Positions 3,372 through 46,442 of a stretch of DNA of 64,000 nt are shown piece after piece. The stretch is from an uncultured Gammaproteobacteria bacterium. Its GTDB lineage: Bacteria; Patescibacteriota; Patescibacteriia; Patescibacteriales; GWC2-42-12. Under the pieces are notes generated by a model. That model had not been told where the DNA came from and made no database searches. It saw only the letters and a list, made by a program, of their open reading frames with translations. A program made the position numbers and the translations under genes. Numbering within the stretch: position 1 is the stretch's first letter; each line of letters begins with the position of its first letter. Location of the stretch: assembly GCA_964431805.1 (NCBI GenBank), contig CAYSKV010000004.1:12201-76200 (forward strand), given 5' to 3'.

Positions 3372-3393
3372 AAGTAAATTCAGATAAGATAAA

Positions 3394-4923: not shown

Positions 4924-4957
4924 TTTATAATAATTAATAGTAAATTTACATAAATAA

Positions 4958-6787: not shown

Positions 6788-6798
6788 TTATACTTAAG

Positions 6799-6937: not shown

Positions 6938-7011
6938 GAGATATTTTTTGTGGTATAATATAAATATTAATAATTAAACCTCGCTCCATAAAGCGAATGA
7001 AGGGGGAATTT

Positions 7012-9928: not shown

Positions 9929-9940
9929 ATATAATTAGTT

Positions 9941-11588: not shown

Positions 11589-11731
11589 AGTTTTCAACAG
11601 GTAAAAAATTTGTAAATAAAATAGAATTCTTTCTGAGTCTCCGTTTTAACGGGGAAGGCAGAATAAAAATCCAAACGGCTCCGTAAAGACAGAACTCTAA
11701 CGGAAAGGAAATAGCATTGGCCGTTTTTTTG
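11589..11731 (+). ncRNA. Candidate small RNA bounded by a promoter and a terminator, upstream of rpoB
   Basis: Starts just after the 11554 promoter. AAACGGC (11673-11679) pairs with GCCGTTT (11720-11726), enclosing TCCGT (11680-11684) / ACGGA (11700-11704), then a T-run to 11730. No family recognised. Confidence 0.4.
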
Positions 11732-11822
11732 TTATCTTCGTTATTCATTTTTAAAATCCCCTTGCATATTTTTAAATCTTAAATAAGTGAAGACTTGTCT
11801 CATTAATTAAATATTTCGCGTT

Positions 11823-11857
11823 AACTCACAGCTATTAAAAACTGGTTGAGTTTTTTT
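11823..11857 (+). terminator. Terminator/attenuator-like hairpin immediately upstream of rpoB
   Basis: AACTCACAG (11823-11831) pairs with CTG..TGAGTT (11842-11852), followed by TTTTTTT (11851-11857), 31 nt before ATG 11888. Confidence 0.5.
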
Positions 11858-11887
11858 GTTTTTAAATAAATTTATTAAAAATATATT

Positions 11888-28954: not shown

Positions 28955-31822
28955 ATGGAAAAATATAATCATAAAAAAATAGAAGATAAATGGCGGGAAA
29001 AATGGGAAAAAGAGAAATTATATAAAACCGGCGAAGATAAAGCCAAGCCCAAATTTTATATTTTGGATATGTTTCCTTATCCTTCGGGCGCTGGCCTTCA
29101 TGTTGGCCATCCCAAAGGTTATATTGCTACGGATATTTTTGCTCGCGCTAAAATGATGCAAGGGTACAACGTGCTTCATCCTATGGGTTGGGATGCTTTT
29201 GGTTTGCCGGCAGAAAATTATGCTATTCAAAATAAAATTCATCCAAGAGTTGCCACAGAAAAAAATGTAGAAACTTTTAAAAGTCAGTTAAAAAAATTAG
29301 GTTTTACTTATGATTGGGATCGAGAGATAAACACCACCGATCCGGGATTTTATAAATGGACACAATGGGCATTTATAAAAATGTTTGAGCGTGGCCTAGC
29401 TTATGAATCAAACGAGCCGGTTAATTGGTGTCCGAGCTGTAAAACGGTTTTATCTAACGAAGATTTAGAAAATGGCAAATGTGAACGCTGCGGTTCTGAG
29501 ATTGAAAGAAAGCCGATGCGACAATGGGTTTTAAAAATTACTGATTACGCCGAAAGAATGTTAAATGATTTAGAAAAATTGCCATATTGGGAAGAGTCAA
29601 TTAAAGAAATGCAAAAAAATTGGATCGGCCGATCAGAAGGCGCGGAAGTTGATTTTGAAATTAACGGCGAAAAAGTAACGGTGTTTACTACGCGACCGGA
29701 TACTTTGTTCGGCGCGACGTTTTTTGTTATGGCGCCTGAACATCCATTAGTTAAAAAAATAACTACTGCTGAACAAAAATCACAAGTAGAAAAATATATT
29801 AAAGAAGCAGCTAGCAAGTCCGACATGGAAAGAACGGAATTAGCTAAAGAAAAAACCGGTGTATTTACTGGAGCTTATGCGATTAATCCAGTTAATCAAG
29901 AAAAAATTCCGGTTTACATTGCTGATTATGTGATGATGGGATATGGCACGGGCGCAATTATGGCCGTGCCGGCGCACGATGAAAGAGATTGGGAGTTTGC
30001 CAAAAAATATGACATACCGATTAAACAAGTTGTGGCGCCATATTTTTCAATTAATGATGGTCCGGACGCCGTACGTTCTGATAAAAAAACCGTAAAACGA
30101 TATACCGCTTATTCTCTCGTAAAACATTGTAAAAAAGATGAATATTTATGTTTAGATTGGGAAAAATTTGGTTGGCATTCAGGAATTATCGGCGGCATTG
30201 ACGAAGGTGAAGATTCTATAGAATCAGCCAAGCGAGAAATTATTGAAGAAACTGGCTATAAAAATATTCGCTTAGTAAAAGATCTGGGCATGGAAACTCA
30301 TAATAATTTTTACGCTGCCCATAAAAATGAAAATCGTTATGCTTTTGGTCCGGCCTTTTTGTTTGAATTAATAGATGAAGAGCAAGAACCGACTAGCGAA
30401 GAGCATACGAAAAATCATAAGGCTGTTTGGGTTAAAAAAGAAGACATGTCGACATTTTTAAATTTAGCTAATTTTGTTTATTTTTGGAAAATTTTGCAAG
30501 GTCAGGAAAGTTTTTGTTTTGCTGATAATGGCGTCGCGACTAATTCAGGTTTTTTAAATGATTTAGAAACTAAAACTGCCAAAGAAAAAATTATTAAATG
30601 GCTAGAAGAAAAAAAATTAGGTAAACGAGCGATAAATTATAAAATAAAAGATTGGGTGTTTTCTAGACAAAGATATTGGGGCGAGCCGATTCCGATTGTG
30701 CATTGCGAAAAGTGCGGTAATGTAGCCGTACCGGAAAATGAGTTACCATTAAAATTGCCGGAAGTAAAAAATTATGAACCGACCGGAACTGGCGAGTCGC
30801 CGCTAGCTAATATAAAAGAATGGGTAAATACAAAATGTCCGAAATGCGGCGGACCGGCTAAAAGAGAAACTAATACTATGCCGCAATGGGCTGGGTCAAG
30901 CTGGTATTATTTAAGATATATTGATCCGCATAATGATAAAGCTTTAATTGAAAAGGGGAAAGATAAATATTGGTCGCCGGTTGATTTTTATGTAGGCGGC
31001 GCTGAGCATGCCACGCGCCATTTAATTTACGCGCGTTTCTGGCATAAATTTTTGTTTGATATTGGCGTGGTAAATTACGACGAACCATTTACTCGTTTAC
31101 AACATGTCGGTTTAATTTTAGCCGAAGACGGACGTAAAATGAGTAAGCGCTGGATGAATGTTATTAATCCGGACGAGGTCGTAGAAAAATACGGCGCTGA
31201 TGCTATGCGCGTTTATGAAATGTTTATGGGGCCATTTTCCCAACCTTGCGCTTGGAGCACTAACGGACTAATCGGCGCTAGAAGATTTTTAGAAAATGTT
31301 TATAAATTAAAAGATAAACAATTATATGATTGCCAAGCAGATAGTTATATAAAAGAATTAGGCATGCCGCAAATGATTCATAAAACTATAAAAAAAGTTA
31401 GCGAAGATATTGAAAATTTTCGTTATAATACAGCTATTGCCCAGATGATGATTTTTGTAAATTTTGCTGTTAAGTTTGATGAACTACCGCGCGAAGTTTT
31501 TGAGAATTTTTTAAAGCTTTTAGCTCCGTTTGCGCCGCATTTAGCTGAAGAATTATGGGCTGAAATTGGCAATAAAGAATCTATTTTTAAACAAGCCTGG
31601 CCAAAATATAATCCGGCCTTAGTTAAAGATGAAACTATAAATTTAGTTATTCAAATTAATGGGAAGATTCGTGATACTATCGAAGTTTCGGCTGATATTA
31701 GCGAAGAAGAAGCAAAAAAAATAGCTCTAGAAAGCGAAAAAGTTAAAAAATGGCTTGAAGGTAAAGAGACAATAAAAGTTATTTTTGTGAAAGGGAAATT
31801 AGTTAATATAGTTATTAAATAA
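28955..31822 (+). CDS. leuS: Leucine--tRNA ligase with an inserted NUDIX-hydrolase-like domain
   Basis: HIGH motif (HVGHPKGY), KMSKS motif (KMSKRW), editing-domain end [16 protein letters not shown]. At 955 aa it is about 100-150 aa longer than typical bacterial LeuRS. NUDIX box at aa 413-435. Confidence 0.95.
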
Positions 31823-32314: not shown

Positions 32315-33301
32315 TTATAAATTCGTCATTAACCAAGTTCCGTCGGACTGTTTTTTAACGTAATATTTTATTTCGATTTTTTCACCCTGAAAATAAACGT
32401 AATTATGATAAATTTTCTCTGTTGCGGTGGCAGTTAATAAACTTGAACCAGTAAGCATTTCGCTCCAAACTAATTTATTTTCTGAACTAAGAAAGTTCAT
32501 AGTGTATTTAATGGTTGATGCGAGATTAGAAGTGAAATAAGCTGCAACTTTATCAGTTTCATTGCTTCTTATAGCTTCGCCGGCTTTATAGATTGTTTGG
32601 TCAGTATCCGTATTAACCGTGTTAGTTTGGCTTGTGTTATTAGAAGAAGATGATGAAGTAGCGGCAGTAGTTTGTTGATTATTAAAATAGCCAGTAATAA
32701 TTTTATTTATATCATTATTACTAATACCCAGGCCCAATTTTTTCATTATTATAAAAGTTTCATCGGGCGAACCTAAATAATAGCGTTTACTATCGGAGGG
32801 GTTTATATACCAAGCTTGTCCGCGGTTTTCTACTTGTAAAAAAATTTTTCCTAGATTATTTTTAATTATTTTTTCGTCAGGTATAATTTTTTCTGAACCG
32901 ATTGGGTTATAAAAATTGATAATTTCTGTTTTATCGTCAAAACCATCGTCATCAGAATCTTTTTTATTAGAGTCAGTTCCTATTGCTAATTCTAAATTAT
33001 TCGGCAGTCCGTCGCTATCATCGTCAACGCCAGAGTAGTCGGTTAAACCAACAGAAATTTTATTTAAATTATTATTAGTTATTCCAATGCCAAAAGCTCG
33101 TAGTAAATTAAATGCGTCTTTTGGTCCGCCAAGAAAATATTTTTTTAAATCAATTGGGTTTAAATACCAGGCTTCGCCGTGAGATTGAACTTGAAGTAAA
33201 ATTTTACCGGTTATTTTTTGAATAAAACTAGTATAAGCCTTTGCGGGTAAGGTTAATATAATAAAAAAAATAAAGATGGTAATTATATATTTTTTGAGCA
33301 T
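32315..33301 (-). CDS. Secreted repeat protein with Asp-rich calcium-binding-like linkers
   Basis: Signal peptide. Two copies of a ~55-aa module (GKILLQVQSHGEAWYLNP...GIGITNNNLNKI and GKIFLQVENRGQAWYINP...GLGISNNDINKI), each followed by a DxDxDG-type stretch. Confidence 0.6.
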   Translation of the reverse strand: MLKKYIITIFIFFIILTLPAKAYTSFIQKITGKILLQVQSHGEAWYLNPIDLKKYFLGGPKDAFNLLRAFGIGITNNNLNKISVGLTDYSGVDDDSDGLPNNLELAIGTDSNKKDSDDDGFDDKTEIINFYNPIGSEKIIPDEKIIKNNLGKIFLQVENRGQAWYINPSDSKRYYLGSPDETFIIMKKLGLGISNNDINKIITGYFNNQQTTAATSSSSSNNTSQTNTVNTDTDQTIYKAGEAIRSNETDKVAAYFTSNLASTIKYTMNFLSSENKLVWSEMLTGSSLLTATATEKIYHNYVYFQGEKIEIKYYVKKQSDGTWLMTNL

Positions 33302-33347
33302 TTTAAATAATTATGGTATAATATAGTTAATAAATTAATAAAAAATT

Positions 33348-33851
33348 ATGTCTAAAAGGCGTAAAATACAATTAATAAGCTTACTAGTTATAATTTTGTT
33401 AGCGATTTTTTTAACTCCGAGGGTGGTAGATTATTTTCAATATAGAAATGTAGTTGCCGAAGCGGCTGGTTCAAGCTATCCTTGGCAATGCGGCGCATAT
33501 CAAGTGGCAGCAGTTGTAAGTACGTGCGCGGTTGTTAATGGAGTTTGTACTTGCGCTTCTTGCACTGCTGATGCTTGTAATAATTATAGTATGATGACTT
33601 TTACTGGTCAGCAAAATTGCGGGGCTACTTATGCGTGTATTAGTAATTTGGTTCAAGTAAAAGGTGGCGCTACAACTTTAATGGAGTGCGCGGGTAAGCA
33701 AGCTATACTCGCCGGTACTACCAATATTAATATGATGGCTCCTAATGCTTTAGTGGCTTGCCCAGGTTCTGTTGCAGCTAACAATATGGATAAATTTGTA
33801 AATTGGTTTGATAAATATATTATAGCAGGTTTCAAAGATAAAATTAAATAA
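33348..33851 (+). CDS. Hypothetical Cys-rich membrane-anchored/exported protein
   Basis: 167 aa with an N-terminal TM helix and many cysteines (TCAVVNGVCTCASCTADAC). No family recognised. Confidence 0.55.
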   Translation: MSKRRKIQLISLLVIILLAIFLTPRVVDYFQYRNVVAEAAGSSYPWQCGAYQVAAVVSTCAVVNGVCTCASCTADACNNYSMMTFTGQQNCGATYACISNLVQVKGGATTLMECAGKQAILAGTTNINMMAPNALVACPGSVAANNMDKFVNWFDKYIIAGFKDKIK

Positions 33852-33853
33852 GG

Positions 33854-34684
33854 ATGAATTTATTTGAACAAACTAAAGAGCTTTGTCGTCTCTACAATAT
33901 TAAACCTGCTCGTTCAAAAGGGCAGAATTTTTTAATTGAAGAAGAAATTTATGATCAGATGGCAAACGCGGCAGATTTACAAAATAATGATGTAATATTA
34001 GAAGTTGGTCCGGGTTTAGGTTTTTTAACGGCCAAGTTGGCGAAAAAGGTTAGCCGTGTAATTGCAGTAGAACTTGATGATAAATTGGCGAAGGTTTTAA
34101 AAACGGGGTTGTTAGCTAAAGAAATTAAGAATGTGGAAGTAATAAACGAAGATATATTAAAATTTTCACCAGCAAATTATAAATTACAAAATTATAAAAT
34201 TGTAGCGAATTTACCATACAATATTACTTCTATCTTTTTGCGTAAATTTCTAGAGTCTGAAAAGAAACCAGAATTTATGACCTTAATGCTGCAGAAAGAA
34301 GTAGCTGAAAGAATTTGCGCGCAACCAGGAAAGATGAGTTTGCTTTCCGTGTCGGTTCAATTTTATGCCAAACCGGAAATAATACAAATTGTACCTAAAG
34401 AAGATTTTTGGCCAAGTCCGGAAGTCGATAGCGCTATTATTAAAATTATATCTCATCCTAAACTTCTTCTTAACAAGGAAAAGGAGGAAAAAGATTTTTT
34501 TCGGTTAGTTAAATTCGGTTTTAGCGCTAAAAGAAAAATGTTAAAAAATAATTTAGCCGCCGGTTTTAAAATTGATCAAACCGAAGTTGAAAATAAAATA
34601 GTAAAAGCCGGACTTAATTCTAAAATTAGAGCTCAAGAATTATTGATTAATGATTGGTTAAAGTTATTAGATAATTTTAGTTAG
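33854..34684 (+). CDS. rsmA: 16S rRNA (adenine1518/1519-N6)-dimethyltransferase
   Basis: KGQNFL, SAM motif LEVGPGLGFLT, NLPYNITS. Confidence 0.93.
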   Translation: MNLFEQTKELCRLYNIKPARSKGQNFLIEEEIYDQMANAADLQNNDVILEVGPGLGFLTAKLAKKVSRVIAVELDDKLAKVLKTGLLAKEIKNVEVINEDILKFSPANYKLQNYKIVANLPYNITSIFLRKFLESEKKPEFMTLMLQKEVAERICAQPGKMSLLSVSVQFYAKPEIIQIVPKEDFWPSPEVDSAIIKIISHPKLLLNKEKEEKDFFRLVKFGFSAKRKMLKNNLAAGFKIDQTEVENKIVKAGLNSKIRAQELLINDWLKLLDNFS

Positions 34685-34758
34685 TTTTCTTTTTTTATCG
34701 CTATTTTATTATATTATTATTTTTTTATATCAGAATGAAATATTTAGGGTAATTTTTT

Positions 34759-37224
34759 ATGAATTTTACTATAATATTACCATTAATCAGCGCGATCTTA
34801 GCTATTAGCATAGGCATTTTTGTATTTAAGCAAAATAGAAAAAGTTTGATAAATCAAACTTTTTTTCTTTTTACTCTTGGTATAACGGAATGGTTTATTT
34901 GCACTTTCATGATGTTTTTATATAAAGATGATGTGGCGGGGGTAATTTTTTGGGATAGATTAGTCTATGCTGGTGTAGCATTTATGCCGGTTTTTACTTA
35001 TAAATTTTATTTAGCCTTAATTGGTAAAAAATCTGACAAAATTCTTTATGTCGGTTATTTATTATCAATAAGTTTTGCGATCCTTACACGTTCAAAATAT
35101 TTTATTGATGGTATTTATGTTTATAGCTGGGGCGTCCATACACAAGCTAGAATTCTGCACCATATATTTTTGGTGTATTTTGTAGTATTTATATTATTAT
35201 GGTTCTTCGCTACTTTAAAATTTTATAAAAGCCTTAAACCGTCATTAATTAAAGAACAAACTAAATATATATTTATATCTTTTGGCGTATTTTATTTAAT
35301 TGCGCCTCTCGGTTTTTTAGCGGCTTATAATGTAGGAGTTTATCCTGTAACATATTTTTCTGGATTAATTTTTACTATCATGATGGCTTATTGTATAGCG
35401 ATTTATCGCGTTATGGACATTAAATTAGTAATTAGAAAATCCTCCGTCTATCTCTTTTCCCTGGCCACAGTTTTAATTTTTATGACGACCGTTAAATTGA
35501 TTTCTGCTCAATTATTTACTGCTCCTCCAATTTGGATTGATTTATTGGTTCTATTAATTGCTGTTTATATTTTTTCGCCTATTAAGCATTATTACTATCG
35601 TTTAGCTAATAAATATTTCTTCTCCTCTTTGTATGATAGCCGCGAACTAATTGCTGATTTAAGCGATAAACTCCGCTCTACCATTGAAATCGGTAAAATC
35701 TATGAATATGTTTCAGAAATTTTAGTTAATGCTTTGCACGTGACCGCTTTTGGCGTTGTGTCTTTTGATGAAAAAAAACAAGTTTATATAACCCAGTATG
35801 GTCAAGGCTTAAACATCGGCCAACAAGAAATATTCCCAGGCAGTAAAGAAATATATAAAATTTTTACTAAAAGAAATCAGCCGATCATTGTTGAAGAAAT
35901 AAAATTTAGTAATTTTAAAATTAATAAGTCAATTTTAAATTTACTCACTAAAGCAAACGTCGCCCTGTTATCTCCTCTAAACATGAAAGATAAAACAGTC
36001 GGCATGATGGTATTTGGCCCTAAAGAATCCAAAGACCCTTTTAACGAAGAAGATTTAAAAGTTCTAGAAATTTTAGGCACGCAAATCGCTTTTGCCATGG
36101 AGAACGCTTTGCTCTACGCAGAATCGGTAAAATTTAATATCCAATTGAATGAAGAAAAAAATAAAATTGCGGCTATTATCGCTAACTTTATCGACCCGAT
36201 TATCTTTGTTGACCGCTATAATAATATTAACCTCATAAACCCGGCCGCTAAAAACATCCTCGGTTTAACAGAAAAAAGCTTGGGCGTAAGCATAGATACT
36301 AGCAATAATTGCCCGATGTCTAACTTCCGTACCGTCATCAAAAAAGAGTTTCAGATTAAAGAAATTGGCAATTTAAAATCAACTGATCATCATAGCGAAG
36401 AAATGTCTATTTTAGTTAATAACCAAGAATTAATTTATAAAATTACAACCATCAGGGTTTTTGATGATCAAACAAACCACCTAGGCCTCATGAAAATTTT
36501 CGTCAATCTCACCCGCGAAAAAGGCATTGATAAAATGAAATCAGAATTTATCTCTATCGCCGCCCATCAGCTAAGAACCCCATTATCAGCCATTAAATGG
36601 GTAATTAAGATGATATTAGACGGGGATGCTGGAGAACTTAATGTTGAGCAAAAAGATTTATTAAGGAAGGGCTATATTAGCAACGAAAGAATTATCAGAT
36701 TAGTTAATGATTTATTAAACGTTTCTCGTATTGAAGAAGGTAAGTTTGGATTTAATTTTGAAAAAACCGATTTTCAAGAAATTTTGACTACGACCAAAAG
36801 CAACTTAGAAGGTTTAATAGCAAAAAATCACCAAGAATTAATAGTGCAAAAACCAGAGAAACTACCTAAAGTATATCTGGACAAAGAAAGAATGGTTATG
36901 GTTTTGCAAAATTTACTTGATAATGCCATAAAATATACTCCAGAATATGGAAAAATAGAAATAATTGTTACTACCGACAAAAAATTTCTGCATGTTAAAG
37001 TTAAAGATCAAGGGGTAGGCATAAGCAAAAATGATCAAGCTAAATTATTTTCTAAATTTTTCCGAGCCTCTAATGCGCTTAAACTAGAAACCGAAGGCAG
37101 CGGATTAGGATTGTTTATAGTAAAAAATATTATTGAAAAACATAATGGTTCAATTGAATTAAAAAGCGAAGAAGGTCGAGGAACCGAAATAAGTTTTTCT
37201 TTGCCAATTGAGCAAAAACTTTAG
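34759..37224 (+). CDS. Sensor histidine kinase 1 (multi-TM sensor, GAF-like, PAS-like, HisKA, HATPase_c)
   Basis: H-box SIAAHQLRTPL, N-box LLDNAIKYTP, G-boxes DQGVGI and GSGLGL, and an N-terminal domain of about 7 TM segments. Confidence 0.9.
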   Translation: MNFTIILPLISAILAISIGIFVFKQNRKSLINQTFFLFTLGITEWFICTFMMFLYKDDVAGVIFWDRLVYAGVAFMPVFTYKFYLALIGKKSDKILYVGYLLSISFAILTRSKYFIDGIYVYSWGVHTQARILHHIFLVYFVVFILLWFFATLKFYKSLKPSLIKEQTKYIFISFGVFYLIAPLGFLAAYNVGVYPVTYFSGLIFTIMMAYCIAIYRVMDIKLVIRKSSVYLFSLATVLIFMTTVKLISAQLFTAPPIWIDLLVLLIAVYIFSPIKHYYYRLANKYFFSSLYDSRELIADLSDKLRSTIEIGKIYEYVSEILVNALHVTAFGVVSFDEKKQVYITQYGQGLNIGQQEIFPGSKEIYKIFTKRNQPIIVEEIKFSNFKINKSILNLLTKANVALLSPLNMKDKTVGMMVFGPKESKDPFNEEDLKVLEILGTQIAFAMENALLYAESVKFNIQLNEEKNKIAAIIANFIDPIIFVDRYNNINLINPAAKNILGLTEKSLGVSIDTSNNCPMSNFRTVIKKEFQIKEIGNLKSTDHHSEEMSILVNNQELIYKITTIRVFDDQTNHLGLMKIFVNLTREKGIDKMKSEFISIAAHQLRTPLSAIKWVIKMILDGDAGELNVEQKDLLRKGYISNERIIRLVNDLLNVSRIEEGKFGFNFEKTDFQEILTTTKSNLEGLIAKNHQELIVQKPEKLPKVYLDKERMVMVLQNLLDNAIKYTPEYGKIEIIVTTDKKFLHVKVKDQGVGISKNDQAKLFSKFFRASNALKLETEGSGLGLFIVKNIIEKHNGSIELKSEEGRGTEISFSLPIEQKL
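35438..36636 (+). repeat. Identical segment shared by the two kinase genes (copy 1)
   Basis: 35438-36582 is identical base for base to 37956-39100 (offset 2518; I compared every line). There are two mismatches at 36583 and 36585, then identity to 36636. Confidence 0.95.
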
Positions 37225-37255
37225 ATTGATTTTTATTTGAGAATAAAGGTATTTT

Positions 37256-39748
37256 ATGAATTTACAAAATTTTTTATCACTAAATGGTCTTTTAACCGGA
37301 ATCATAGCCGCTGTTTTTGGTTTCATGGTTATTTTTAAAGATCGAAAAAATATTATTAATCAAACCCTTTTTGGCCTAACTATGACTACCGCTCTTTGGC
37401 AACTTGGTTATTGGCGTTGGTTAATGATTTATGATAATCAAGATTTAGCTTTATTTTGGTGTCGAGTTTTATCAGTCGGTTCTCATTTTCTCGCAGTTTT
37501 TTATTTTCATTGGATTGTTTCTTTGTTGGGTTTGAATAAACAGAAAAAAAAGCTTATTTTTGTTTCTTATTTTGTAGCTGGTATTTTTTTGTTTTTTATT
37601 TTTTCCCCTTGGTTTGTCAGTAGTGTTGAGCCCGTCGGAAATTATTTTGCTTTTTGGCCTAAAGCCGGTTTTTTATATTCTATTTACATAGTTTTAATGT
37701 TTTTGGGTTTAGCTCCTTATGCTCTTTTTTTACTTTTCAGACATTATAAAAAATCTGTTGGTCAAAAAAGAAATCAAATAAAATATGTTATTATTGCCAC
37801 AATTCTCGCTTTTGGTGGGGGAGAAACTAATTTTCCTCTTTGGTATGATATTCCTATATTGCCCATAGGAAATGTATTAGTCGTGTTATATCCAATTCTT
37901 TTTTCTTATGCAATTATTAGACATCGTTTAATGGATATAAAGTTTGTTTTACGCCAATCCTCCGTCTATCTCTTTTCCCTGGCCACAGTTTTAATTTTTA
38001 TGACGACCGTTAAATTGATTTCTGCTCAATTATTTACTGCTCCTCCAATTTGGATTGATTTATTGGTTCTATTAATTGCTGTTTATATTTTTTCGCCTAT
38101 TAAGCATTATTACTATCGTTTAGCTAATAAATATTTCTTCTCCTCTTTGTATGATAGCCGCGAACTAATTGCTGATTTAAGCGATAAACTCCGCTCTACC
38201 ATTGAAATCGGTAAAATCTATGAATATGTTTCAGAAATTTTAGTTAATGCTTTGCACGTGACCGCTTTTGGCGTTGTGTCTTTTGATGAAAAAAAACAAG
38301 TTTATATAACCCAGTATGGTCAAGGCTTAAACATCGGCCAACAAGAAATATTCCCAGGCAGTAAAGAAATATATAAAATTTTTACTAAAAGAAATCAGCC
38401 GATCATTGTTGAAGAAATAAAATTTAGTAATTTTAAAATTAATAAGTCAATTTTAAATTTACTCACTAAAGCAAACGTCGCCCTGTTATCTCCTCTAAAC
38501 ATGAAAGATAAAACAGTCGGCATGATGGTATTTGGCCCTAAAGAATCCAAAGACCCTTTTAACGAAGAAGATTTAAAAGTTCTAGAAATTTTAGGCACGC
38601 AAATCGCTTTTGCCATGGAGAACGCTTTGCTCTACGCAGAATCGGTAAAATTTAATATCCAATTGAATGAAGAAAAAAATAAAATTGCGGCTATTATCGC
38701 TAACTTTATCGACCCGATTATCTTTGTTGACCGCTATAATAATATTAACCTCATAAACCCGGCCGCTAAAAACATCCTCGGTTTAACAGAAAAAAGCTTG
38801 GGCGTAAGCATAGATACTAGCAATAATTGCCCGATGTCTAACTTCCGTACCGTCATCAAAAAAGAGTTTCAGATTAAAGAAATTGGCAATTTAAAATCAA
38901 CTGATCATCATAGCGAAGAAATGTCTATTTTAGTTAATAACCAAGAATTAATTTATAAAATTACAACCATCAGGGTTTTTGATGATCAAACAAACCACCT
39001 AGGCCTCATGAAAATTTTCGTCAATCTCACCCGCGAAAAAGGCATTGATAAAATGAAATCAGAATTTATCTCTATCGCCGCCCATCAGCTAAGAACCCCA
39101 CTCTCAGCCATTAAATGGGTAATTAAGATGATATTAGACGGGGATGCTGGAGAATTGTCTCTGGAACAACAAGAACTATTAAACAAAGGTTATCTAAGCA
39201 ACGAACGAGTTATTAGGTTAGTTAACGACCTATTGAACGTTTCTCGTATTGAAGAAGGCAAATTTGGGTTTAATTTTGAGAGCACTGATTTTAAAGAAGT
39301 TCTAGACACTTCCATTAGTAATATTGATAGTTTAATTGATAAAAGCCATCAAGAGCTCAAGATTGAAATCCCGCCAAAACTACCCAAGATATATTTAGAT
39401 AAAGAAAGAATCATTATGGTAATACAAAATTTATTAAGTAATGCCATCAAATATACTCCAGAATATGGTAAGATTGAAGTAATTATTAAAGTTGACAAGC
39501 AGTACCTGAATGTTAAAATTAAAGACCAGGGGGTAGGCATACCGGCCGAAGATCAGCCAAAAATATTTTCTAAATTTTTCCGAGCGGCTAATGTGGTTAA
39601 ATTAGAAACCGAAGGCAGCGGACTAGGCCTCTTTATGGTTAAAAACATCATCGAAAAACATAAGGGCCAAGTCAGTTTAAAAAGCGAAGAAGGCAAAGGC
39701 ACGGAAGTTAGTTTTACTTTGCCGATAAATGGAATGATTAGTTTATAA
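37256..39748 (+). CDS. Sensor histidine kinase 2 (paralog of 34759-37224)
   Basis: Same domain order as kinase 1. The N-terminal TM sensor is only weakly similar, the core is identical, and the catalytic domain is moderately diverged. Confidence 0.9.
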   Translation: MNLQNFLSLNGLLTGIIAAVFGFMVIFKDRKNIINQTLFGLTMTTALWQLGYWRWLMIYDNQDLALFWCRVLSVGSHFLAVFYFHWIVSLLGLNKQKKKLIFVSYFVAGIFLFFIFSPWFVSSVEPVGNYFAFWPKAGFLYSIYIVLMFLGLAPYALFLLFRHYKKSVGQKRNQIKYVIIATILAFGGGETNFPLWYDIPILPIGNVLVVLYPILFSYAIIRHRLMDIKFVLRQSSVYLFSLATVLIFMTTVKLISAQLFTAPPIWIDLLVLLIAVYIFSPIKHYYYRLANKYFFSSLYDSRELIADLSDKLRSTIEIGKIYEYVSEILVNALHVTAFGVVSFDEKKQVYITQYGQGLNIGQQEIFPGSKEIYKIFTKRNQPIIVEEIKFSNFKINKSILNLLTKANVALLSPLNMKDKTVGMMVFGPKESKDPFNEEDLKVLEILGTQIAFAMENALLYAESVKFNIQLNEEKNKIAAIIANFIDPIIFVDRYNNINLINPAAKNILGLTEKSLGVSIDTSNNCPMSNFRTVIKKEFQIKEIGNLKSTDHHSEEMSILVNNQELIYKITTIRVFDDQTNHLGLMKIFVNLTREKGIDKMKSEFISIAAHQLRTPLSAIKWVIKMILDGDAGELSLEQQELLNKGYLSNERVIRLVNDLLNVSRIEEGKFGFNFESTDFKEVLDTSISNIDSLIDKSHQELKIEIPPKLPKIYLDKERIIMVIQNLLSNAIKYTPEYGKIEVIIKVDKQYLNVKIKDQGVGIPAEDQPKIFSKFFRAANVVKLETEGSGLGLFMVKNIIEKHKGQVSLKSEEGKGTEVSFTLPINGMISL
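37956..39154 (+). repeat. Identical segment shared by the two kinase genes (copy 2)
   Basis: See 35438-36636. Even the antisense 73-aa track ORFs (35877-36098 and 38395-38616) are identical. Confidence 0.95.
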
Positions 39749-39787
39749 TTTTATATTTATATATTAATTAAATTTAAACAAAATTAT

Positions 39788-40603
39788 ATGGCAACTAAAA
39801 AAAATGAAATTTTAAATGGAGGGAGCAACAAAATTTTAATTATTGAAGACGAGGATGCTTTAGCTAGCGTTTTATTAGCAAAATTCAAATTAGAAAAATT
39901 CGCAGTAGATATTGCTAATAACGGTGAAGAAGGTTTAAGTAAAATTGAATCTTGGCAACCAGATTTAATTTTACTTGATATTATTATGCCGAAAATGAAT
40001 GGTTATGAAGTTTTAGAAAATTTACAAAAAAAGGGCAATAAAATTCCGGTGATAGTAATTTCTAATTCTGGTCAAGACGTTGAATTAGAAAAAATAAAAA
40101 AGTTGGGAGCTCTTGACTATATAATTAAAACTCAAATTAATCCGGAAGAGGTTATAGAAAAAGCGATAAATGTTTTAAGCGGTCGCGTTGTGGTTAGCAG
40201 TAAAAAGGAAGATAATACGAAAACTGGCGTTAAGGTTTTATTAGTTGAAGACGATTCTTTTTTAAGAGATATCTGTTTTAAAAAGTTAAATAAAGAAGGT
40301 TTTAATGTTGATGTAGCGCTTAACGGAGAAGAGGCTGTAAAAAAAGTTAATGAATTTATACCAGCTATTGTTTTATTAGATATTATTTTACCCGCCATGG
40401 ATGGTTTCGAAGTTTTAAAGGCGATTCGTTCAAGTAAAAATAATGCTATTAAAAATGTGCCGGTTATTATGTTAACAAATTTAGGACAAGAGGAAGATAA
40501 CAGAAAAGCCTTAGCCTTAGGAGCTAATGATTATTTAGTTAAGGCGCATTTTACAACCGAGGAAATTGTTAAAAAAATTAAGAGTAAATTGGGTTTAGAA
40601 TAA
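39788..40603 (+). CDS. Response regulator with two receiver domains and no output domain
   Basis: REC1: ILIIEDEDAL...DLILLDIIMPKMNG...DYIIK. REC2: VLLVEDDSFL...IVLLDIILPAMDG...DYLVK. Confidence 0.88.
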   Translation: MATKKNEILNGGSNKILIIEDEDALASVLLAKFKLEKFAVDIANNGEEGLSKIESWQPDLILLDIIMPKMNGYEVLENLQKKGNKIPVIVISNSGQDVELEKIKKLGALDYIIKTQINPEEVIEKAINVLSGRVVVSSKKEDNTKTGVKVLLVEDDSFLRDICFKKLNKEGFNVDVALNGEEAVKKVNEFIPAIVLLDIILPAMDGFEVLKAIRSSKNNAIKNVPVIMLTNLGQEEDNRKALALGANDYLVKAHFTTEEIVKKIKSKLGLE

Positions 40604-40656
40604 ATTTGTGTTATAATAAAATAGAAATTAGTTTATAAATTTATACAAACATTATT

Positions 40657-41025
40657 ATGCAAATTAAAGAAATAAAAAACATTAATAAAGTATCATTAGC
40701 TAAATTAATAGCTTTGATTTATGGTTTTGTTGGTTTTTTCACAGCTTTAATAGTGGCCATATCAACTATGGCTAATATTATCATGCAAAAAGATTTTGCC
40801 GGTTCAGTTATTTTAGTAACTCTATTTAATATTGGCGCCGGGTTACTTTTAGGGGTTTTAGTTTCTTTAGTTACAGCTTTAATTGGTTTTATTATCGGTT
40901 ATATTTCCGCTGCAGTTTATAATTGGTTTAGTAAAAAAGTCGGCGGGATTAAACTAGAATTAGTAGATATCGCTGAAGTAAAAAAGGAGAGCAATATAAC
41001 AGAAGATCAAAATAATTTAATTTAA
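40657..41025 (+). CDS. Hypothetical small membrane protein
   Basis: 122 aa with 3 predicted TM segments. No family recognised. Confidence 0.5.
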   Translation: MQIKEIKNINKVSLAKLIALIYGFVGFFTALIVAISTMANIIMQKDFAGSVILVTLFNIGAGLLLGVLVSLVTALIGFIIGYISAAVYNWFSKKVGGIKLELVDIAEVKKESNITEDQNNLI

Positions 41026-41055
41026 TTTTGCCCCCGTTCGGGGATAAATAATTTT

Positions 41056-41349
41056 ATGCCTTTAATTAATGATAGTCATGATTTATTAAATATAGTTATT
41101 GCTTTATCAGTTCTATTATTTACTATATTTTCTTGCTGGGCGATTTATTATTTAGCTAGGATTTTACAGCAGATGTTTAAAGTTATTAAAGAAACACGCG
41201 ATCGGCTTAATAAATTTGATGAATTGGTAAAAATGATAAAAGAAAAAATTGAACATAGCGCTTCATATCTGCCGTTAATTGTTGACGGTGTAAAAAAATT
41301 GGTTGATCTTATGAAAAGTCGGGCGGAGAAAAAGAAAAAAAGTAAATAG
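41056..41349 (+). CDS. Hypothetical small membrane-anchored coiled-coil protein
   Basis: 97 aa with one TM segment, then a charged helical region and a KKKKSK tail. Confidence 0.5.
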   Translation: MPLINDSHDLLNIVIALSVLLFTIFSCWAIYYLARILQQMFKVIKETRDRLNKFDELVKMIKEKIEHSASYLPLIVDGVKKLVDLMKSRAEKKKKSK

Positions 41350-41371
41350 AATAATAAAACTTATACAAAAA

Positions 41372-41398
41372 AAGAGGTTAAAATGACCTTCTTTTTTT
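41372..41398 (+). terminator. Rho-independent terminator candidate
   Basis: AAGAGGT / ACCTTCTT imperfect hairpin followed by TTTTTTT. Confidence 0.6.
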
Positions 41399-41402
41399 AT
41401 AA

Positions 41403-41435
41403 ATAAAAAAAGAGACCTTTGTTATATCGGTCTCT
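41403..41435 (-). terminator. Rho-independent terminator for the minus-strand gene 41468-41719
   Basis: AGAGACC (41411-41417) / GGTCTCT (41429-41435). The A-run at 41403-41410 gives a U-run on the minus strand. Confidence 0.7.
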
Positions 41436-41467
41436 TGCGCAGATGTTTTATTCCGTTAGGAGTTGCT

Positions 41468-41719
41468 TTAAATTAGGTTTGAGTAGGATTTATTTTTTTT
41501 GCGTTTAAACTCACAATGAAAAATAAAAGTCGAGATACCAGCGAGCATCGTCATCAAAGAGACGACAGACACAAAAGAGAAAATGTCATAATAATTCGCT
41601 GGCTGGTTAGAAAAAATTATTTTTTGGAACAGTTCTTCTGCTGTCGGCCATAATAAAAATGATATAGCCGTAGCGCTGGCAACAAACAAGAAAAGTAAAT
41701 AAGTTGTTCGATTTTTCAT
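41468..41719 (-). CDS. Hypothetical small membrane protein
   Basis: 83 aa with two TM segments. Confidence 0.45.
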   Translation of the reverse strand: MKNRTTYLLFLFVASATAISFLLWPTAEELFQKIIFSNQPANYYDIFSFVSVVSLMTMLAGISTFIFHCEFKRKKNKSYSNLI

Positions 41720-41759
41720 TTTTTCCCCTCCCTGTCTTTTTTTTATTTTTTTAATAATG

Positions 41760-43988
41760 CTATTTTATATATCCACAATCTTTATTAGAGCATTTAACTT
41801 CGCCTTTTTTCGCGTCTTCTATTAATAAGCTATCGCAGTCCGGGCATTTTTCTCCAGTTGGCTTACCCCAAAAAGCGGTTTTGCAATCCGGATATTGATT
41901 ACAGGCGTAGAAAATTCCTCGTTTACTGCGTTTCTGTACGACCTCGCCTTTACCGCAAACCGGACAGGTTATGCCAGTGCCATTATTTCCGCCGCCAATA
42001 TTTTTTAAATTTTTACATTTCGGATAGCCGGTGCAAGCTAAAAATGGCCCGAATTTTCCAACTTTAATCGCCATAGCTGAACCACACTTTTCGCAAACCT
42101 CGTCTTTATATTTTTCTTTTAATTCTTTAATTTCTTCGTTATCGGTTTGGCCGTTGCCGTTTTTGTCTGCGCCAGGCATTGATTTTATATTTTTACATTC
42201 AGGAAAAGCGCTGCAGGCTAAAAATTTTCCATAGCGGCCGGTTTTAATAATCATAGGCGCGCCGCATTTATCGCAAACTTCAGTTGATTTTTCTTCAGGC
42301 ATAATATCATTTTTATTTATAACTTCGTATTTATTTTCTAAATTAGTGTGAAAAGGCTCGTAAAATTCTTTAATTATCGGTTGCCATTTAGCCTCGCCCT
42401 CAGCGATTAAATCCAAATCATTTTCTAATTTAGCGGTAAACTGGTAATCCACAATTTTAGGGAAATGCTCAACTAATAAATCGTTAACTACAAAAGCGAT
42501 ATCAGTCGGCGCTAAGCGTTTATTTTCGTCGCGTTGCACATAATTTCTGTCAACGATTGTGGCTATAGTCGGAGCATAAGTTGATGGTCGGCCAATACCA
42601 TATTTTTCTAATTCTTTTACTAGGCCAGCGTCAGAATATCTGGCTGGTGGTTTTGTAAAATGTTGTTCTTTTTTTATTTCTTCTAAATCAAGTTTTTCTT
42701 TTATTTCTAATTCCGGGAGTTCTATTTCCTGACTTTTTTCCGGATAAATTTTTAAATAGCCGTCGAATTTTAAAATTTGGCCGTTAGCTCTAAATTGATA
42801 AGGCGTGTTTTTAGCTTCAACATCAACGGCCGTGGCGTCAACTATGGCTTCGCTCATCTGCGAGGCTACAGCTCTTTGCCAAATTAATTTATATAATTTA
42901 TTTTGATTAGGATTTAATTCGCTTTCTACGGATTCCGGGGTGCGCGAGGCTTCGGATGGGCGAATAGCTTCATGAGCTTCTTGCGCGCCTTTAGATTTAG
43001 TTTTAAAGCGGCGCGGCGAGGAAAGTGCGTAATTAGCGCCTAAATTAGAAGTTAAATATTCGGTCGCTTCGTTTAAAAATTTATCAGCTAAATTTAGCGA
43101 ATCGGTTCTCATATAGGTTATAAAACCTACTTCATAAAGTTGCTGGGCTACCATCATAGTTTGCTTGGCCGAAAAGCCGAGCCAGCGGTTAGCGGTTTGC
43201 TGTAAACTTGAAGTGGTAAAAGGTTTTGGCGGTTGTTTTTTAGTTTGTTTTTTTTCTAAGTTGGTTACAAAATATTCAGCATGATCAAGATCGTTTAAAA
43301 TTTTTGAAGCTTCCTGCTCATTTTTAATTTCTAGTTTATCAATCGTTTTATTGTTGATTTTATTTAATCTGACTAAAAATGGCAGTTGCTTTTTATTTTT
43401 TAAAATTGCCGAAATAGACCAGTATTCTTGCGTGATAAATTTTTTTATTTCTTGTTCACGTTCAACAATTAAACGAACTGCCACCGATTGGACTCGTCCA
43501 GCAGACAAACCTTTAGCTACTTTTTTCCATAAGAAAGGGGATAGTTCATAACCGACTAAGCGATCAAGAATTCTTCTGGCTTGTTGGGCATTAACCAATT
43601 TCATATCAATTTTTCTCGGGTGTTCTAAAGCTTCCATAATCGCTGGTTTAGTAATTTCATGAAAGACGATGCGGTCAGTATCTTTCGGGTCAACTTTTAG
43701 AGCTTCGGCCAAATGCCAAGCGATTGCTTCTCCTTCGCGGTCTTCGTCGGTTGCCAGAACAATTTTATCTGATTTTTTAGCTAATTCCTGAAGTTTTTTA
43801 AGATTTTTTTTAGCTTTTACTGGCACAACATATTTAGGTTCAAAATCATGTTCAATATCAATACCCATTTTACTGACCGGTAAATCGCGTACATGGCCGA
43901 AAGAAGATTCAATATTAAAATCAGAGCCTAAAAATTTAGCTATAGTTTTTGCTTTAGTTGGAGATTCGACAATGACTAATTTTTTCAT
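41760..43988 (-). CDS. topA: DNA topoisomerase I
   Basis: TOPRIM N-terminus MKKLVIVESPTKAKTI, EGEAIAWH, YITYMRTDS active-site Tyr region, and four C-terminal CxxC...CxxC zinc ribbons. Confidence 0.96.
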   Translation of the reverse strand: MKKLVIVESPTKAKTIAKFLGSDFNIESSFGHVRDLPVSKMGIDIEHDFEPKYVVPVKAKKNLKKLQELAKKSDKIVLATDEDREGEAIAWHLAEALKVDPKDTDRIVFHEITKPAIMEALEHPRKIDMKLVNAQQARRILDRLVGYELSPFLWKKVAKGLSAGRVQSVAVRLIVEREQEIKKFITQEYWSISAILKNKKQLPFLVRLNKINNKTIDKLEIKNEQEASKILNDLDHAEYFVTNLEKKQTKKQPPKPFTTSSLQQTANRWLGFSAKQTMMVAQQLYEVGFITYMRTDSLNLADKFLNEATEYLTSNLGANYALSSPRRFKTKSKGAQEAHEAIRPSEASRTPESVESELNPNQNKLYKLIWQRAVASQMSEAIVDATAVDVEAKNTPYQFRANGQILKFDGYLKIYPEKSQEIELPELEIKEKLDLEEIKKEQHFTKPPARYSDAGLVKELEKYGIGRPSTYAPTIATIVDRNYVQRDENKRLAPTDIAFVVNDLLVEHFPKIVDYQFTAKLENDLDLIAEGEAKWQPIIKEFYEPFHTNLENKYEVINKNDIMPEEKSTEVCDKCGAPMIIKTGRYGKFLACSAFPECKNIKSMPGADKNGNGQTDNEEIKELKEKYKDEVCEKCGSAMAIKVGKFGPFLACTGYPKCKNLKNIGGGNNGTGITCPVCGKGEVVQKRSKRGIFYACNQYPDCKTAFWGKPTGEKCPDCDSLLIEDAKKGEVKCSNKDCGYIK

Positions 43989-44027
43989 AAAAAATAAATG
44001 TCATTTTAGTGACAAATTAAATAATAC

Positions 44028-45119
44028 TTATCTGGCCAATACGTATTGCATACTGCCTAAATTTTTTACCATTCCTTTCATTTCCATGATAGTAAGTGTA
44101 CTATTTATAATTGATGTGTCAAGTTTTGTCAACTGTTTAAGCTCGTCAATATGAATTGGCTCATAAGATAATCCCGCGAGAATTATTTTTTCTTCATTTG
44201 TATCAGGAATTACTTTTTTGTTTTCAATGTAAGAAGCCGCTTCGGCTAAATTAAGAGTTTCTATAATATCTTTAGCGCTGGTTACTAATTTTGCTCCCAT
44301 AGCAATTAAGCGATTAGTGCCTTCCGAAGAACCGGAATAAATACTGCCGGGCACGGCAAAAACTTCTCGATTTTGCTCTAAAGCATGAAAAGCCGTAATT
44401 AGCGCGCCGGATTTTTCAGCGGCTTCTACAACTAAAGTAGCGTTAGATAGGCCGGAAATTATTCGGTTTCTTTGGGGAAAGTGATGCTTTAAAGGCATAG
44501 TGCCGATTGGGTATTCTGATAAAATTAATCCGCCGTGAGTCTGAATTTTATCCGCTAAATAGCGATTTTGTGAAGGGTAAATATTTTGTTGGTCAAGTCC
44601 GGAGCCTAAAACCGCTACGGTTTTTCCGCCAGCTTCAATCGCGGCTGAATGAGCTAGAGTATCTATGCCTAAAGCTAAGCCGCTCGTAATAGTTAAATTA
44701 TTTAAACTTAACTCTCTGGTTAATTTTTCCGTAGCTTGCGCTCCGTAAGGGCTATATTTTCTGGCGCCGACCACGGCTAGTAAAAAACCGTTCAAAGCTT
44801 CTAAATCTCCGCGGTAATATAAGATAAAGGGCGGATCATAAATTTGTTTTAAAAGTTTTGGGTAAGCTGGATCTTCTATGGTTAAAGCTTTTAATTTTTC
44901 TTTGTTCAAATTTTCCAATAATTTTTCCGGTTCAACTTTATGTTTAAAAATTATGAATTCTTCAGCGATCTTTTCTTCAATGCCAGCGTGAATATAATCT
45001 TTTATCGTGGCTTTATAGGCGTTTTCAATATTAGAAAAATAATTTTTTAACTTTTTAAATTTTATTGGGCCGAATTTATAAAACTGGCTTAGCGCCAGCC
45101 AATATTTAAGATCATTCAT
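44028..45119 (-). CDS. dprA: DNA processing protein DprA (Smf)
   Basis: VVGARKYSPYG, GLALGIDTLAHSAA, FPQRNRIISGLS, VVEAAEKSGALITA; adjacent to topA, as in many bacteria. Confidence 0.92.
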   Translation of the reverse strand: MNDLKYWLALSQFYKFGPIKFKKLKNYFSNIENAYKATIKDYIHAGIEEKIAEEFIIFKHKVEPEKLLENLNKEKLKALTIEDPAYPKLLKQIYDPPFILYYRGDLEALNGFLLAVVGARKYSPYGAQATEKLTRELSLNNLTITSGLALGIDTLAHSAAIEAGGKTVAVLGSGLDQQNIYPSQNRYLADKIQTHGGLILSEYPIGTMPLKHHFPQRNRIISGLSNATLVVEAAEKSGALITAFHALEQNREVFAVPGSIYSGSSEGTNRLIAMGAKLVTSAKDIIETLNLAEAASYIENKKVIPDTNEEKIILAGLSYEPIHIDELKQLTKLDTSIINSTLTIMEMKGMVKNLGSMQYVLAR

Positions 45120-45168
45120 GTTTAATTTTTATTTTATATTAGCGATAATTATCTAGATTATTTAAGTC

Positions 45169-45197
45169 TTGACAGGATGGTTTAGTTATGTTAATAT
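45169..45197 (+). promoter_or_regulatory. Consensus sigma70-type promoter for candidate sRNA 1
   Basis: TTGACA (45169-45174), 17-nt spacer, TAATAT (45192-45197). Confidence 0.65.
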
Positions 45198-45203
45198 ACT
45201 ATG

Positions 45204-45332
45204 ATATTTAATTTTATAGCGTTCAGTTTGTTACTTGCTTAAGGGCATAATTTATAAATAGTTTTCCTCCTTAATTATTTATAAATTTTGAATCCCTTTT
45301 AAAGCAAGTAGCACATTGAGCGTTATTTTTTT
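45204..45332 (+). ncRNA. Candidate sRNA 1: ~110-nt extended hairpin with a CCUCCU apical loop and U7 terminator
   Basis: 45216-45245 pairs with 45294-45326 (one mismatch, four G.U pairs, a small internal loop). A 12-bp apical stem joins 45249-45260 and 45276-45287. The 15-nt loop is GTTTTCCTCCTTAAT. T-run 45326-45332. Confidence 0.55.
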
Positions 45333-45360
45333 GACAATTATCTTTTTTCATAATAACATA
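45331..45360 (+). promoter_or_regulatory. sigma70-type promoter candidate for element 2 / orphan ORF leader
   Basis: TTGACA (45331-45336) overlaps the preceding U-run. The best -10 candidates are TAATAA (45351-45356) or TAACAT (45355-45360). Confidence 0.45.
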
Positions 45361-45361
45361 T

Positions 45362-45505
45362 TTAGACGTAACCACAAATAGTATTTAGAATTTTGTCTAG
45401 GAGTGGTGAAAGTTAAACCTCCCTCCTGGTTTGGCTGGAGCCTTAAATCGGGGTTATCCCTATGCTTCTAGACAGAATTGTAAATAGTATTTGTTGTTTT
45501 TATTT
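45362..45505 (+). ncRNA. Candidate structured RNA 2 or 5' leader of ORF 45551 (27-bp closing stem, anti-SD box)
   Basis: 45374-45400 pairs with 45468-45494 (two G-G mismatches, one G.U pair), followed by TGTTTTTATTTATT. The internal CCTCCCTCCT (45418-45427) contains CCCTCCT, complementary to AGGAGGG (45540-45546). Confidence 0.45.
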
Positions 45506-45550
45506 ATTGGTCATTATAACTAATTATTTAAAGAGATTGAGGAGGGTATA

Positions 45551-45871
45551 ATGAATGCTATAGAAATGACGGTTAAAGTTGTTGACAGGAAAAACGAAGG
45601 AGATATTCATAATGATGATTTTATTTACGGCGGCTGGAAAGATGAAGATGAGAAAAAAGAATTCGTCCAGTATTTAAGGCTTGGGCGCTTCTTTCAAGCC
45701 CAACACGAACACTTAAAACAGCTGACAGTATTAAAGAATGACAAAGAAATAGTGCGAGCAGTTATTGCTGGAGAAACTAATAATGAAAATATTCTGCGCG
45801 ATGCTCGCAACGAATACCTCTACTTTTTTAAAGCAAAACATGGTAAACTCCCCAGCTTTAAGAAACAATAA
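45551..45871 (+). CDS. Hypothetical 106-aa cytoplasmic protein (orphan)
   Basis: Strong SD GAGGAGGG sits 4 nt before ATG 45551. No TM segment and no recognisable family. Confidence 0.6.
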   Translation: MNAIEMTVKVVDRKNEGDIHNDDFIYGGWKDEDEKKEFVQYLRLGRFFQAQHEHLKQLTVLKNDKEIVRAVIAGETNNENILRDARNEYLYFFKAKHGKLPSFKKQ

Positions 45872-45889
45872 TTAACAAAAAATACAAAA

Positions 45890-45918
45890 ACGGCCACTTA
45901 TATTGGCCGTCTTTTTTT
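45890..45918. terminator. Bidirectional terminator
   Basis: ACGGCCA (45890-45896) / TGGCCGT (45904-45910), flanked by an A-run and a T-run; lies between convergent genes. Confidence 0.85.
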
Positions 45919-45928
45919 ATTTAAAAAA

Positions 45929-46432
45929 TTAATTTTTTTTTGTTATTTCAGATATTGTAGAGTTGATTTTTTTTAATTCTTCCGGCTTGAATTTTTGCAA
46001 AACGAATTTTTCCGCAGGAATTTTTTCTAACTCTAGCGTTTTAATACCGATTCTTAGGCGTTTAAAGTTTTTAGTGTTTAGCCGATCAATTATAGATTGA
46101 ACTCCATTATGTCCGGCGCTTCTTGAGTCCACAGAAATTTTATATTTGCCGAGTTCTATATCTAAATCATCATGAATAACGGTTAAATTTTCCGGCGATA
46201 ATTTATAATAAGCTAAAGTTAATACTACGGCCGAGCCGGATTCATTCATAAAAGTAAGCGGTTTTACTAAAATAACATCATCGCCTTTAGCTATGTCGGC
46301 TTTAAATTTTTTATTATTTTTCCATTTTAAATCTAATTTTTTAGCTAAAGCGTCAACCGCCATAAAACCAGCGTTATGACGAGTTGTTTTATATTGTTCG
46401 CCTGGATTGCCCAGACCGACGATAATATTCAT
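45929..46432 (-). CDS. pth: Peptidyl-tRNA hydrolase
   Basis: MNIIVGLGNPG...TRHNAGF start at ATG 46432. The track ORF extends 19 codons upstream into the der 3' end. Confidence 0.92.
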   Translation of the reverse strand: MNIIVGLGNPGEQYKTTRHNAGFMAVDALAKKLDLKWKNNKKFKADIAKGDDVILVKPLTFMNESGSAVVLTLAYYKLSPENLTVIHDDLDIELGKYKISVDSRSAGHNGVQSIIDRLNTKNFKRLRIGIKTLELEKIPAEKFVLQKFKPEELKKINSTISEITKKN

Positions 46433-46442
46433 ATAATTAATT

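Follow-up and report, generated by a model that had tools for sequence, protein, structure and literature searches.

Genes at the locus

We analysed a 64,000-nt stretch of DNA (positions 12,201 to 76,200 of contig CAYSKV010000004.1, assembly GCA_964431805.1), which we refer to as the window and whose numbering is used throughout. The subject of this report is a tandem pair of genes in the window, HK1 and HK2, both of which encode sensor histidine kinases. The G+C content of the window is 35%, and the database proteins closest to its kinases are annotated as Patescibacteria (Candidate Phyla Radiation, CPR); the host of the locus is a small-genome Patescibacteria bacterium.

HK1 (34759-37224, plus strand) is an open reading frame (ORF) for a protein of 821 amino acids (aa) with matches to HisKA_7TM, GAF, PAS, HisKA and HATPase_c. 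HK2 (37256-39748, plus strand) encodes a protein of 830 aa for which the ORF, the Pfam matches and the translation give the same architecture. In HK1 and HK2 alike, the Pfam families, including HisKA_7TM (PF16927), score above the gathering scores. The H-box HQLRTPL as well as the N, G1, F and G2 motifs are intact in the translation of HK1, and the motifs are likewise visible in that of HK2. Judged by these features, HK1 and HK2 are complete 7TM-GAF-PAS-HisKA-HATPase kinases of the class I transmembrane (TM) type and are predicted to have kinase activity. The two genes are separated by 31 nt (37225-37255) that include an AAAGG ribosome-binding-like site. Located 39 nt 3' of HK2 is a gene for a response regulator (39788-40603, plus strand) that matches Response_reg in two stretches and lacks an output domain, i.e. 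a REC-REC protein.

HK1 and HK2 share an exact repeat with diverged flanks

When HK1 and HK2 were compared at an offset of 2518, positions 35438-36582 were identical to positions 37956-39100, i.e. over 1,145 nt with no mismatch. Mismatches at 36583 and 36585 were followed by another 51 nt of exact identity (36586-36636). This comparison agrees with the first-pass annotation of the same DNA, which had reported base-for-base identity of the two segments, two mismatches and renewed identity to 36636/39154. At a background identity of 0.76, the chance probability of an exact run of 1,145 nt is near 1e-133. We refer to the shared segment as the homogenised block, copy 1 of which is at 35438-36636 in HK1 and copy 2, delimited by repeat comparison with copy 1, at 37956-39154 in HK2 (both plus strand). 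The block corresponds to residues 227-608 of HK1 (626 with the extension) and 234-615 of HK2, and encodes the last two hydrophobic helices, which are TM helices, GAF, PAS and the first helix of the dimerisation and histidine phosphotransfer (DHp) domain with the HisKA H-box HQLRTPL and the phospho-accepting His. Domain matches and translation are thus in line with the earlier assignment of GAF-like and PAS-like parts and the H-box to the shared segment.

On the 5' side of the block, identity at the same offset is 29-41% per 100 nt, too low for an alignment. When aligned by codons, the HK1-specific multi-TM sensor module (N1, 34759-35404, plus strand) and the HK2-specific module (N2, 37256-37922, plus strand) are 47% identical at the nt level and 28% at the aa level, bearing out the description of the sensors as barely alignable. 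The block had also been proposed to start exactly at the last TM region; as a small correction, weak similarity between HK1 and HK2 already sets in at 35405, 33 nt ahead of the exact block. On the 3' side, identity is 66-80% per 100 nt. Here, the segments for DHp helix 2 and the catalytic domain in HK1 (C1, 36637-37224, plus strand) and HK2 (C2, 39155-39748, plus strand) are not homogenised and have overall identities of 74% (nt) and 71% (aa), close to the earlier estimate that about three-quarters of residues are alike.

The tandem repeat is recovered in independent assemblies

For comparison, we used a set of loci from a genome scan and contig look-ups. It includes L017 and L018 from the metagenome-assembled genome (MAG) JBAZFW01 (91-96% nt identity to the window; genome F), L001 (about 81-86%; genome E), L016 (about 78-81%; genome S), and the Joint Genome Institute (JGI) contigs L002-L004, which represent a sister strain of the window (J). 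Moreover, contigs of essentially the same organism from other samples were reached via neighbouring or homologous proteins (close homologs, ksgA and the response regulator) and mapped onto the window; exact-protein look-ups of HK1, HK2 and P0001 matched no record.

The first-pass annotation had raised the possibility that the repeat is an assembly artefact, i.e. that one kinase was falsely duplicated or that two diverged middles were collapsed to one sequence. The source is a MAG, the repeat interrupts short-read assemblies of the same species, and bubble popping could conceal a few single-nucleotide polymorphisms. However, all four junctions (N1-block, block-C1, C1-spacer-N2-block and block-C2) recur in contigs of five or more other samples. 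L004 runs from ksgA via N1 and the whole block into C1, while L002 and L003 run from the tail of the HK1 block via C1, the spacer, N2, the whole block and C2 to the regulator and onward. L005 and L009 extend from N1 and terminate just within the head of the block, and L013 begins in the tail of the HK2 block and runs to C2. Moreover, the start points of L002 and L003 lie 126-127 nt ahead of the first difference between their copies, and L017, which is from a different MAG, opens with an exact 127-nt paralog run. These contig starts match a de Bruijn assembler with k=127 that ended at a true repeat, and breaks of this kind require a real repeat. Because the tandem path alone uses all junctions, and because contig breaks lie about one k-mer length from the ends of the repeat, we conclude that the tandem repeat is real.

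Similarly, both ORFs are intact, and the spacer and the start site are normal. Finally, HK1 of the window has the HK2 state at 36524-25 and, at a distance of 57 nt, bases specific to HK1. This linkage needs real reads and argues for a true difference between HK1 of the window and HK1 of J. Altogether, the independent contigs and the breaks at k-mer distance largely exclude an assembly artefact, which we consider highly improbable. In practical terms, exact 1-kb repeats fragment short-read MAGs of these organisms at such loci.

Within the block, paralogs are more similar than orthologs

In codon alignments of the sensor modules, N1 of the window is 96% identical (nt) to N1 of F, 85% to that of E and 81% to that of S; N2 of the window is 92% identical to N2 of F (L017) and 80% to that of S (L016), and no N2 ortholog was found in L001. 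The same holds for the catalytic parts, with identities to the window of 92% (F) and 81% (S) for C1 and 93% (F) for C2. The N and C parts thus sort by type and not by genome, from which we conclude that the duplication giving rise to HK1 and HK2 predates these lineages.

The middle of the genes behaves differently. Over 35438-35757, HK1 and HK2 of the same genome are 100% identical in the window and J, 99% in S and 98% in F, while the window and S are only 79% identical to each other. At four-fold degenerate sites, HK1 and HK2 of the window are identical at all 131 sites in the block but at only 18 of 35 sites in the adjacent catalytic part. By contrast, 25 of 121 four-fold sites in the block distinguish the window from HK2 of F, the nearest ortholog, and across orthologs the fraction of differing sites ranges from 21% (F) to about 50% (L016 and L001). 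The block thus diverges freely from one genome to another, but its two copies inside a genome do not. In principle, strong purifying selection or a constraint at the codon or RNA level could keep the middles identical without recombination, given that the block encodes conserved signalling domains. However, selection at the protein level cannot account for complete identity at four-fold sites that differ between orthologs; the synonymous-site comparison rules this explanation out, and we give it practically no chance.

The exact runs shared by the paralogs measure 1145+51 nt in the window, 1086+57+51 nt in J, and 306+161+51 nt in S (L016), where the 306-nt and 161-nt runs are separated by segments of 63-69% identity. 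In F, they measure 52+116 and 127+53+54 nt, next to contig breaks, and a segment of 66% identity is present at 36343-36523. Orthologs from different genomes share exact runs of at most 35-98 nt. Tract boundaries differ among the window, J, F and S, and HK1-type and HK2-type segments alternate. Because the mosaic of 100% tracts is particular to each genome, these observations support independent conversion events in several lineages.

The identity could also have arisen in one recent domain swap or partial duplication, in which the middle of HK1 was pasted once into an unrelated kinase and nothing is ongoing. Domain swapping was the alternative offered in the first-pass annotation; N1 and N2 are so dissimilar that the sensor modules may have separate origins, and kinase families often expand with shuffling of domains (PMC1630713). 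However, the HK2 orthologs in L016 and L017 already hold a homologous middle block. In addition, this block has HK2-specific segments (a patch in the GAF domain, described below, and 36343-36523, which is 65-67% identical to the HK1 type) that alternate with 100% tracts in places that differ between genomes, and even within the window species, two strains have tracts that end at different positions. Because the mosaics are lineage-specific and the tract ends strain-specific, several events in several lineages are required. We therefore reject a single swap on the basis of the lineage-specific mosaics and give it only a slim probability.

In total, the sequence comparisons strongly support that the middle block is under recurrent, independent gene conversion, i.e. 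concerted evolution, between tandem paralogs, and we regard this as very probably correct. The recent gene conversion proposed in the first-pass annotation is therefore upheld, and the comparison with orthologous loci that it had suggested was informative in that L016 and L017/L018 both hold the pair, each with its own tract mosaic.

A metagenome scan with HK2 also identified two short JGI metagenome contigs, L099 and L101, with tandem kinases of the HK1/HK2 family. In L099, the 3' tails at 1-233 and 3022-3254 are 97% identical; in L101, those at 1-323 and 3066-3388 are 93.5% identical. Similar homogenisation may occur in these further lineages.

Direction of conversion and variation between strains

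Two old sequence types exist at 36343-36523, and both copies in the window are of the HK2 type. Over this sub-tract (plus strand), HK1 of the window is 94% identical (nt) to HK2 of F and 84% to HK2 of S, but only 66% to HK1 of F and 65% to HK1 of S. Because HK1 of the window carries the HK2 type, conversion at 36343-36523 went from HK2 to HK1 in the window species.

J is identical to the window over 32746-46993 except for the dinucleotide 36524-25 in HK1 and a 170-nt patch in the GAF domain (35758-35927 in copy 1 and 38276-38445 in copy 2, both plus strand). Both copies in the window have allele a of this patch, while J has allele b, which differs from allele a at 49 positions and is identical in HK1 (L004) and HK2 (L002 and L003). 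Each strain thus seems to be fixed for a different variant at both copies, i.e. the copies switched allele together. Allele b is HK1-type sequence, with identities of 79% to HK1 of S, 83% to E and 92% to HK2 of F. Allele a has the HK2-type motifs QY.QG and EEIK.S.FKI.K, which are common to HK2 of S and partly to distant lone HK2-type kinases.

A search with the HK2 sensor module alone yielded just more such distant, lone HK2-type kinases elsewhere (L096-L098), and these contigs end inside the middle block. In L097, the kinase (4362-7297) is split into an ORF of 296 aa for the sensor and one of 524 aa for GAF-PAS-kinase, and is followed by a single-receiver regulator, not a REC-REC protein.

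Several points weigh against recurrent conversion between the two genes as the full account of these patterns. First, the evidence comes from assembled contigs, in which bubble popping could slightly overstate exact identity inside the repeat, and the assembler could have followed the same branch of the 170-nt patch in both copies. Second, the pattern of two alleles, each in both copies, was pieced together from contigs of different samples (HK1 from L004, HK2 from L002/L003). Third, a search for the donor of allele a in the window, L001 and 126 loci found no close match, the best being HK2 of L016 with 72% nt identity. Allele a is therefore either an import from outside the genome, i.e. from an unsampled relative, or a persistent old polymorphism. 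Finally, dprA was the only recombination gene seen in the window.

A second dense cluster of strain differences was observed in der/engA (46443-47879, minus strand), with 142 differences between L002 and the window in a stretch of about 500 nt (46994-47496). L002 has no differences from the window over 41000-46993, and the cluster, which is recombination-like, sits at the end of L002. That the only further difference between the strains is a similarly dense cluster, and that dprA is present in the window, speaks for import as the origin of allele a.

As to the phasing of the patch, the window could be partly heterogeneous, its HK1 with allele b and its HK2 with allele a, the assembler having threaded allele a twice; the blocks would then be truly identical outside the patch only, and the exact tract would be 320 + 655 nt instead of 1,145 nt. 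A 28-mer common to the two alleles had no match in a collection of metagenome contigs in which the relevant JGI samples are not represented. The patch is located between exact repeats of 320 and about 600 nt and is hard to phase with short reads, one event would suffice to separate the window from the JGI strain, and allele b is HK1-type sequence, as expected for HK1. However, ordinary read pairs can bridge the 320-nt flank. Moreover, allele b follows N2 in two independent JGI assemblies and N1 in one, so that homogeneous states exist in the species; and F, judged from its contig breaks, also appears homogeneous across the patch. We consider a heterogeneous window unlikely. Were it true, gene conversion would still hold and only the tracts would be shorter.

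An additional variant was observed in the JGI contig L005 (sample 3300076266): near position 3108 (window 35078-35105), 28 nt of the HK1 sensor module are deleted, and the resulting frameshift splits HK1. L005 may represent a population variant with HK1 inactivated.

A proposed mechanism and deletion chimeras

We propose that in an old tandem pair HK1/HK2, the central 1.15-1.2 kb are kept identical by recurrent non-reciprocal homologous recombination between direct repeats, which would probably be of the RecA type. Non-crossover outcomes would homogenise the block, while crossover outcomes would delete the intervening segment and fuse the genes. The 5' end of the tracts would be fixed where homology stops at the boundary of the sensor modules, upstream of which identity is 47% (nt). 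By contrast, the 3' end would float in the catalytic part with its 74% identity, lying at 36523 in the sister strain, at 36582/36636 in the window and elsewhere in relatives.

A candidate fusion is present in E (L001), where one kinase, HK823, adjoins the regulator. The N part of HK823 is of the HK1 type (85% aa identity) as is the patch; 36343-36523 is of the HK2 type, and so is the C part, which is 82% identical (aa) to C2 but only 70% to C1. By flank identity, E is nearer to the window and F than S is, and S carries the tandem pair. Because E is thus nested between F and S, the tandem state is ancestral. HK823, composed of N1, block and C2, is accordingly best explained as the expected deletion chimera from a crossover between the two blocks, with the direction of this change drawn from parsimony alone.

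A second shared block is present in F, where HK2 and HK519, a third kinase of 519 aa, are 92-100% identical in their 3' halves (L017 2736-3531 versus 5757-6552). Around 38900-39800 of the window, HK2 matches HK2 of F on the 5' side, and on the 3' side the match is to the sequence downstream of HK519. F has two further multi-TM genes, of 243 and 230 aa, which are absent from the window together with the 5' portion of HK519. These observations are consistent with a deletion or an insertion across the second shared block.

The kinase content of the locus is different in every genome examined: upstream of one REC-REC gene, there are two kinases in the window and three in L001, while L016 has three or more and F four or more; the latter counts are lower bounds because contig ends truncate or divide the locus in these two genomes. 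In L001, the kinases of 701, 531 and 823 aa have different sensors and 3' parts that are 83-84% identical (6891-7721, 9099-9929 and 11669-12450).

Predicted signalling by HK1 and HK2

The divergence of N1 and N2 suggests that HK1 and HK2 sense different membrane or periplasmic inputs. At the same time, the two kinases have sequence-identical GAF/PAS and DHp helix 1 in common. Because the cytoplasmic core and the specificity surface of DHp helix 1 are shared, HK1 and HK2 should signal to the same partner. Most likely, this partner is the single downstream REC-REC protein, which would serve as a common phospho-acceptor. Both its receivers retain the acidic pocket, the Asp, the Thr/Ser and the Lys, and the REC-REC gene is kept downstream of the kinases in L001 and L017. 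HK1 and HK2 could also form heterodimers.

Homogenisation might further be maintained by selection and not by recombination alone. In such a scenario, HK1 and HK2 would form a two-input, heterodimer-competent sensor that feeds both receivers of the REC-REC protein, conversion would keep the subunits compatible, and the GAF patch would be a co-adapted core allele. If this were true, different 7TM modules would sit on an identical GAF-PAS-DHp dimer interface; at present, we find a role for selection doubtful.

The operon status of HK1-HK2-REC-REC is based solely on the 31-nt and 39-nt spacers, and a scan for promoters and terminators gave site counts equal to those in shuffled sequences. One sigma-70-like site near consensus (TTGACA, 16 nt, TG, TAAAAT; 11/12) is located at 39492-39519, inside the 3' end of HK2 and about 270 nt upstream of the REC-REC gene, although promoter-like sites overall were no commoner than in shuffles.

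Relation to known systems

Concerted evolution by interlocus gene conversion is well known for bacterial paralogs such as tufA/tufB and for rRNA operons. HK1 and HK2 resemble these cases in that identity is higher within than between genomes, synonymous sites included, and in that discrete tracts are observed in several lineages. They depart from the typical case in that homogenisation is confined to the middle third of the gene, with diverged sensor and catalytic ends, and in that the host belongs to the Patescibacteria. A prokaryote-wide survey of gene conversion among paralogs makes no mention of kinases or two-component proteins in its text (PMC6053082), and in the literature collection searched, gene conversion between histidine-kinase paralogs had no direct precedent.

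Lineage-specific expansion of histidine kinases with domain shuffling was described by Alm et al. 2006 (PMC1630713), in which the term 'gene conversion' is absent and the mechanism is left open. Like those expansions, the locus described here has local paralogs with a conserved kinase core and differing N-terminal sensors, and the number of kinases varies among relatives. Unlike in that work, the HK1/HK2 locus displays recombination intermediates, i.e. converted tracts and deletion chimeras. HK823 of L001, in which the 5' part of HK1 is joined within the shared block to a 3' part of the HK2 type, is like the chimeras formed by unequal crossing-over between direct repeats, and the junction of HK2 with the response regulator gene in the window, compared with HK2-HK519-regulator in F, is like a direct-repeat deletion.

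Work from the Laub laboratory reportedly shows that paralogous two-component pathways are insulated by divergence of the DHp residues for specificity and dimerisation. HK1 and HK2 belong to the same protein family and have the same partner-specifying region in DHp helix 1. Their state is the opposite of such insulation, as the His-box helix and the dimerising GAF/PAS are kept identical, and the pair is probably not insulated. An identical His-box/dimerisation helix predicts convergent (many-to-one) signalling or heterodimers, counter to the expectation that duplicated kinases diverge in this helix to insulate their pathways. We conclude that the locus is a new, well-resolved case of a known process, concerted evolution, with the twist that the identical region is the one usually used for insulation. 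Traced across four related genomes and two strains, this one locus is a clear natural record of the remodelling of a sensor-kinase family, and the record includes converted tracts, their direction, floating boundaries and deletion chimeras from the same recombination.

Elsewhere in the window, the gene for leucyl-tRNA synthetase (28955-31822) encodes a protein with an internal match to NUDIX (PF00293) at residues 407-498, and the match is present in the L001 ortholog too.

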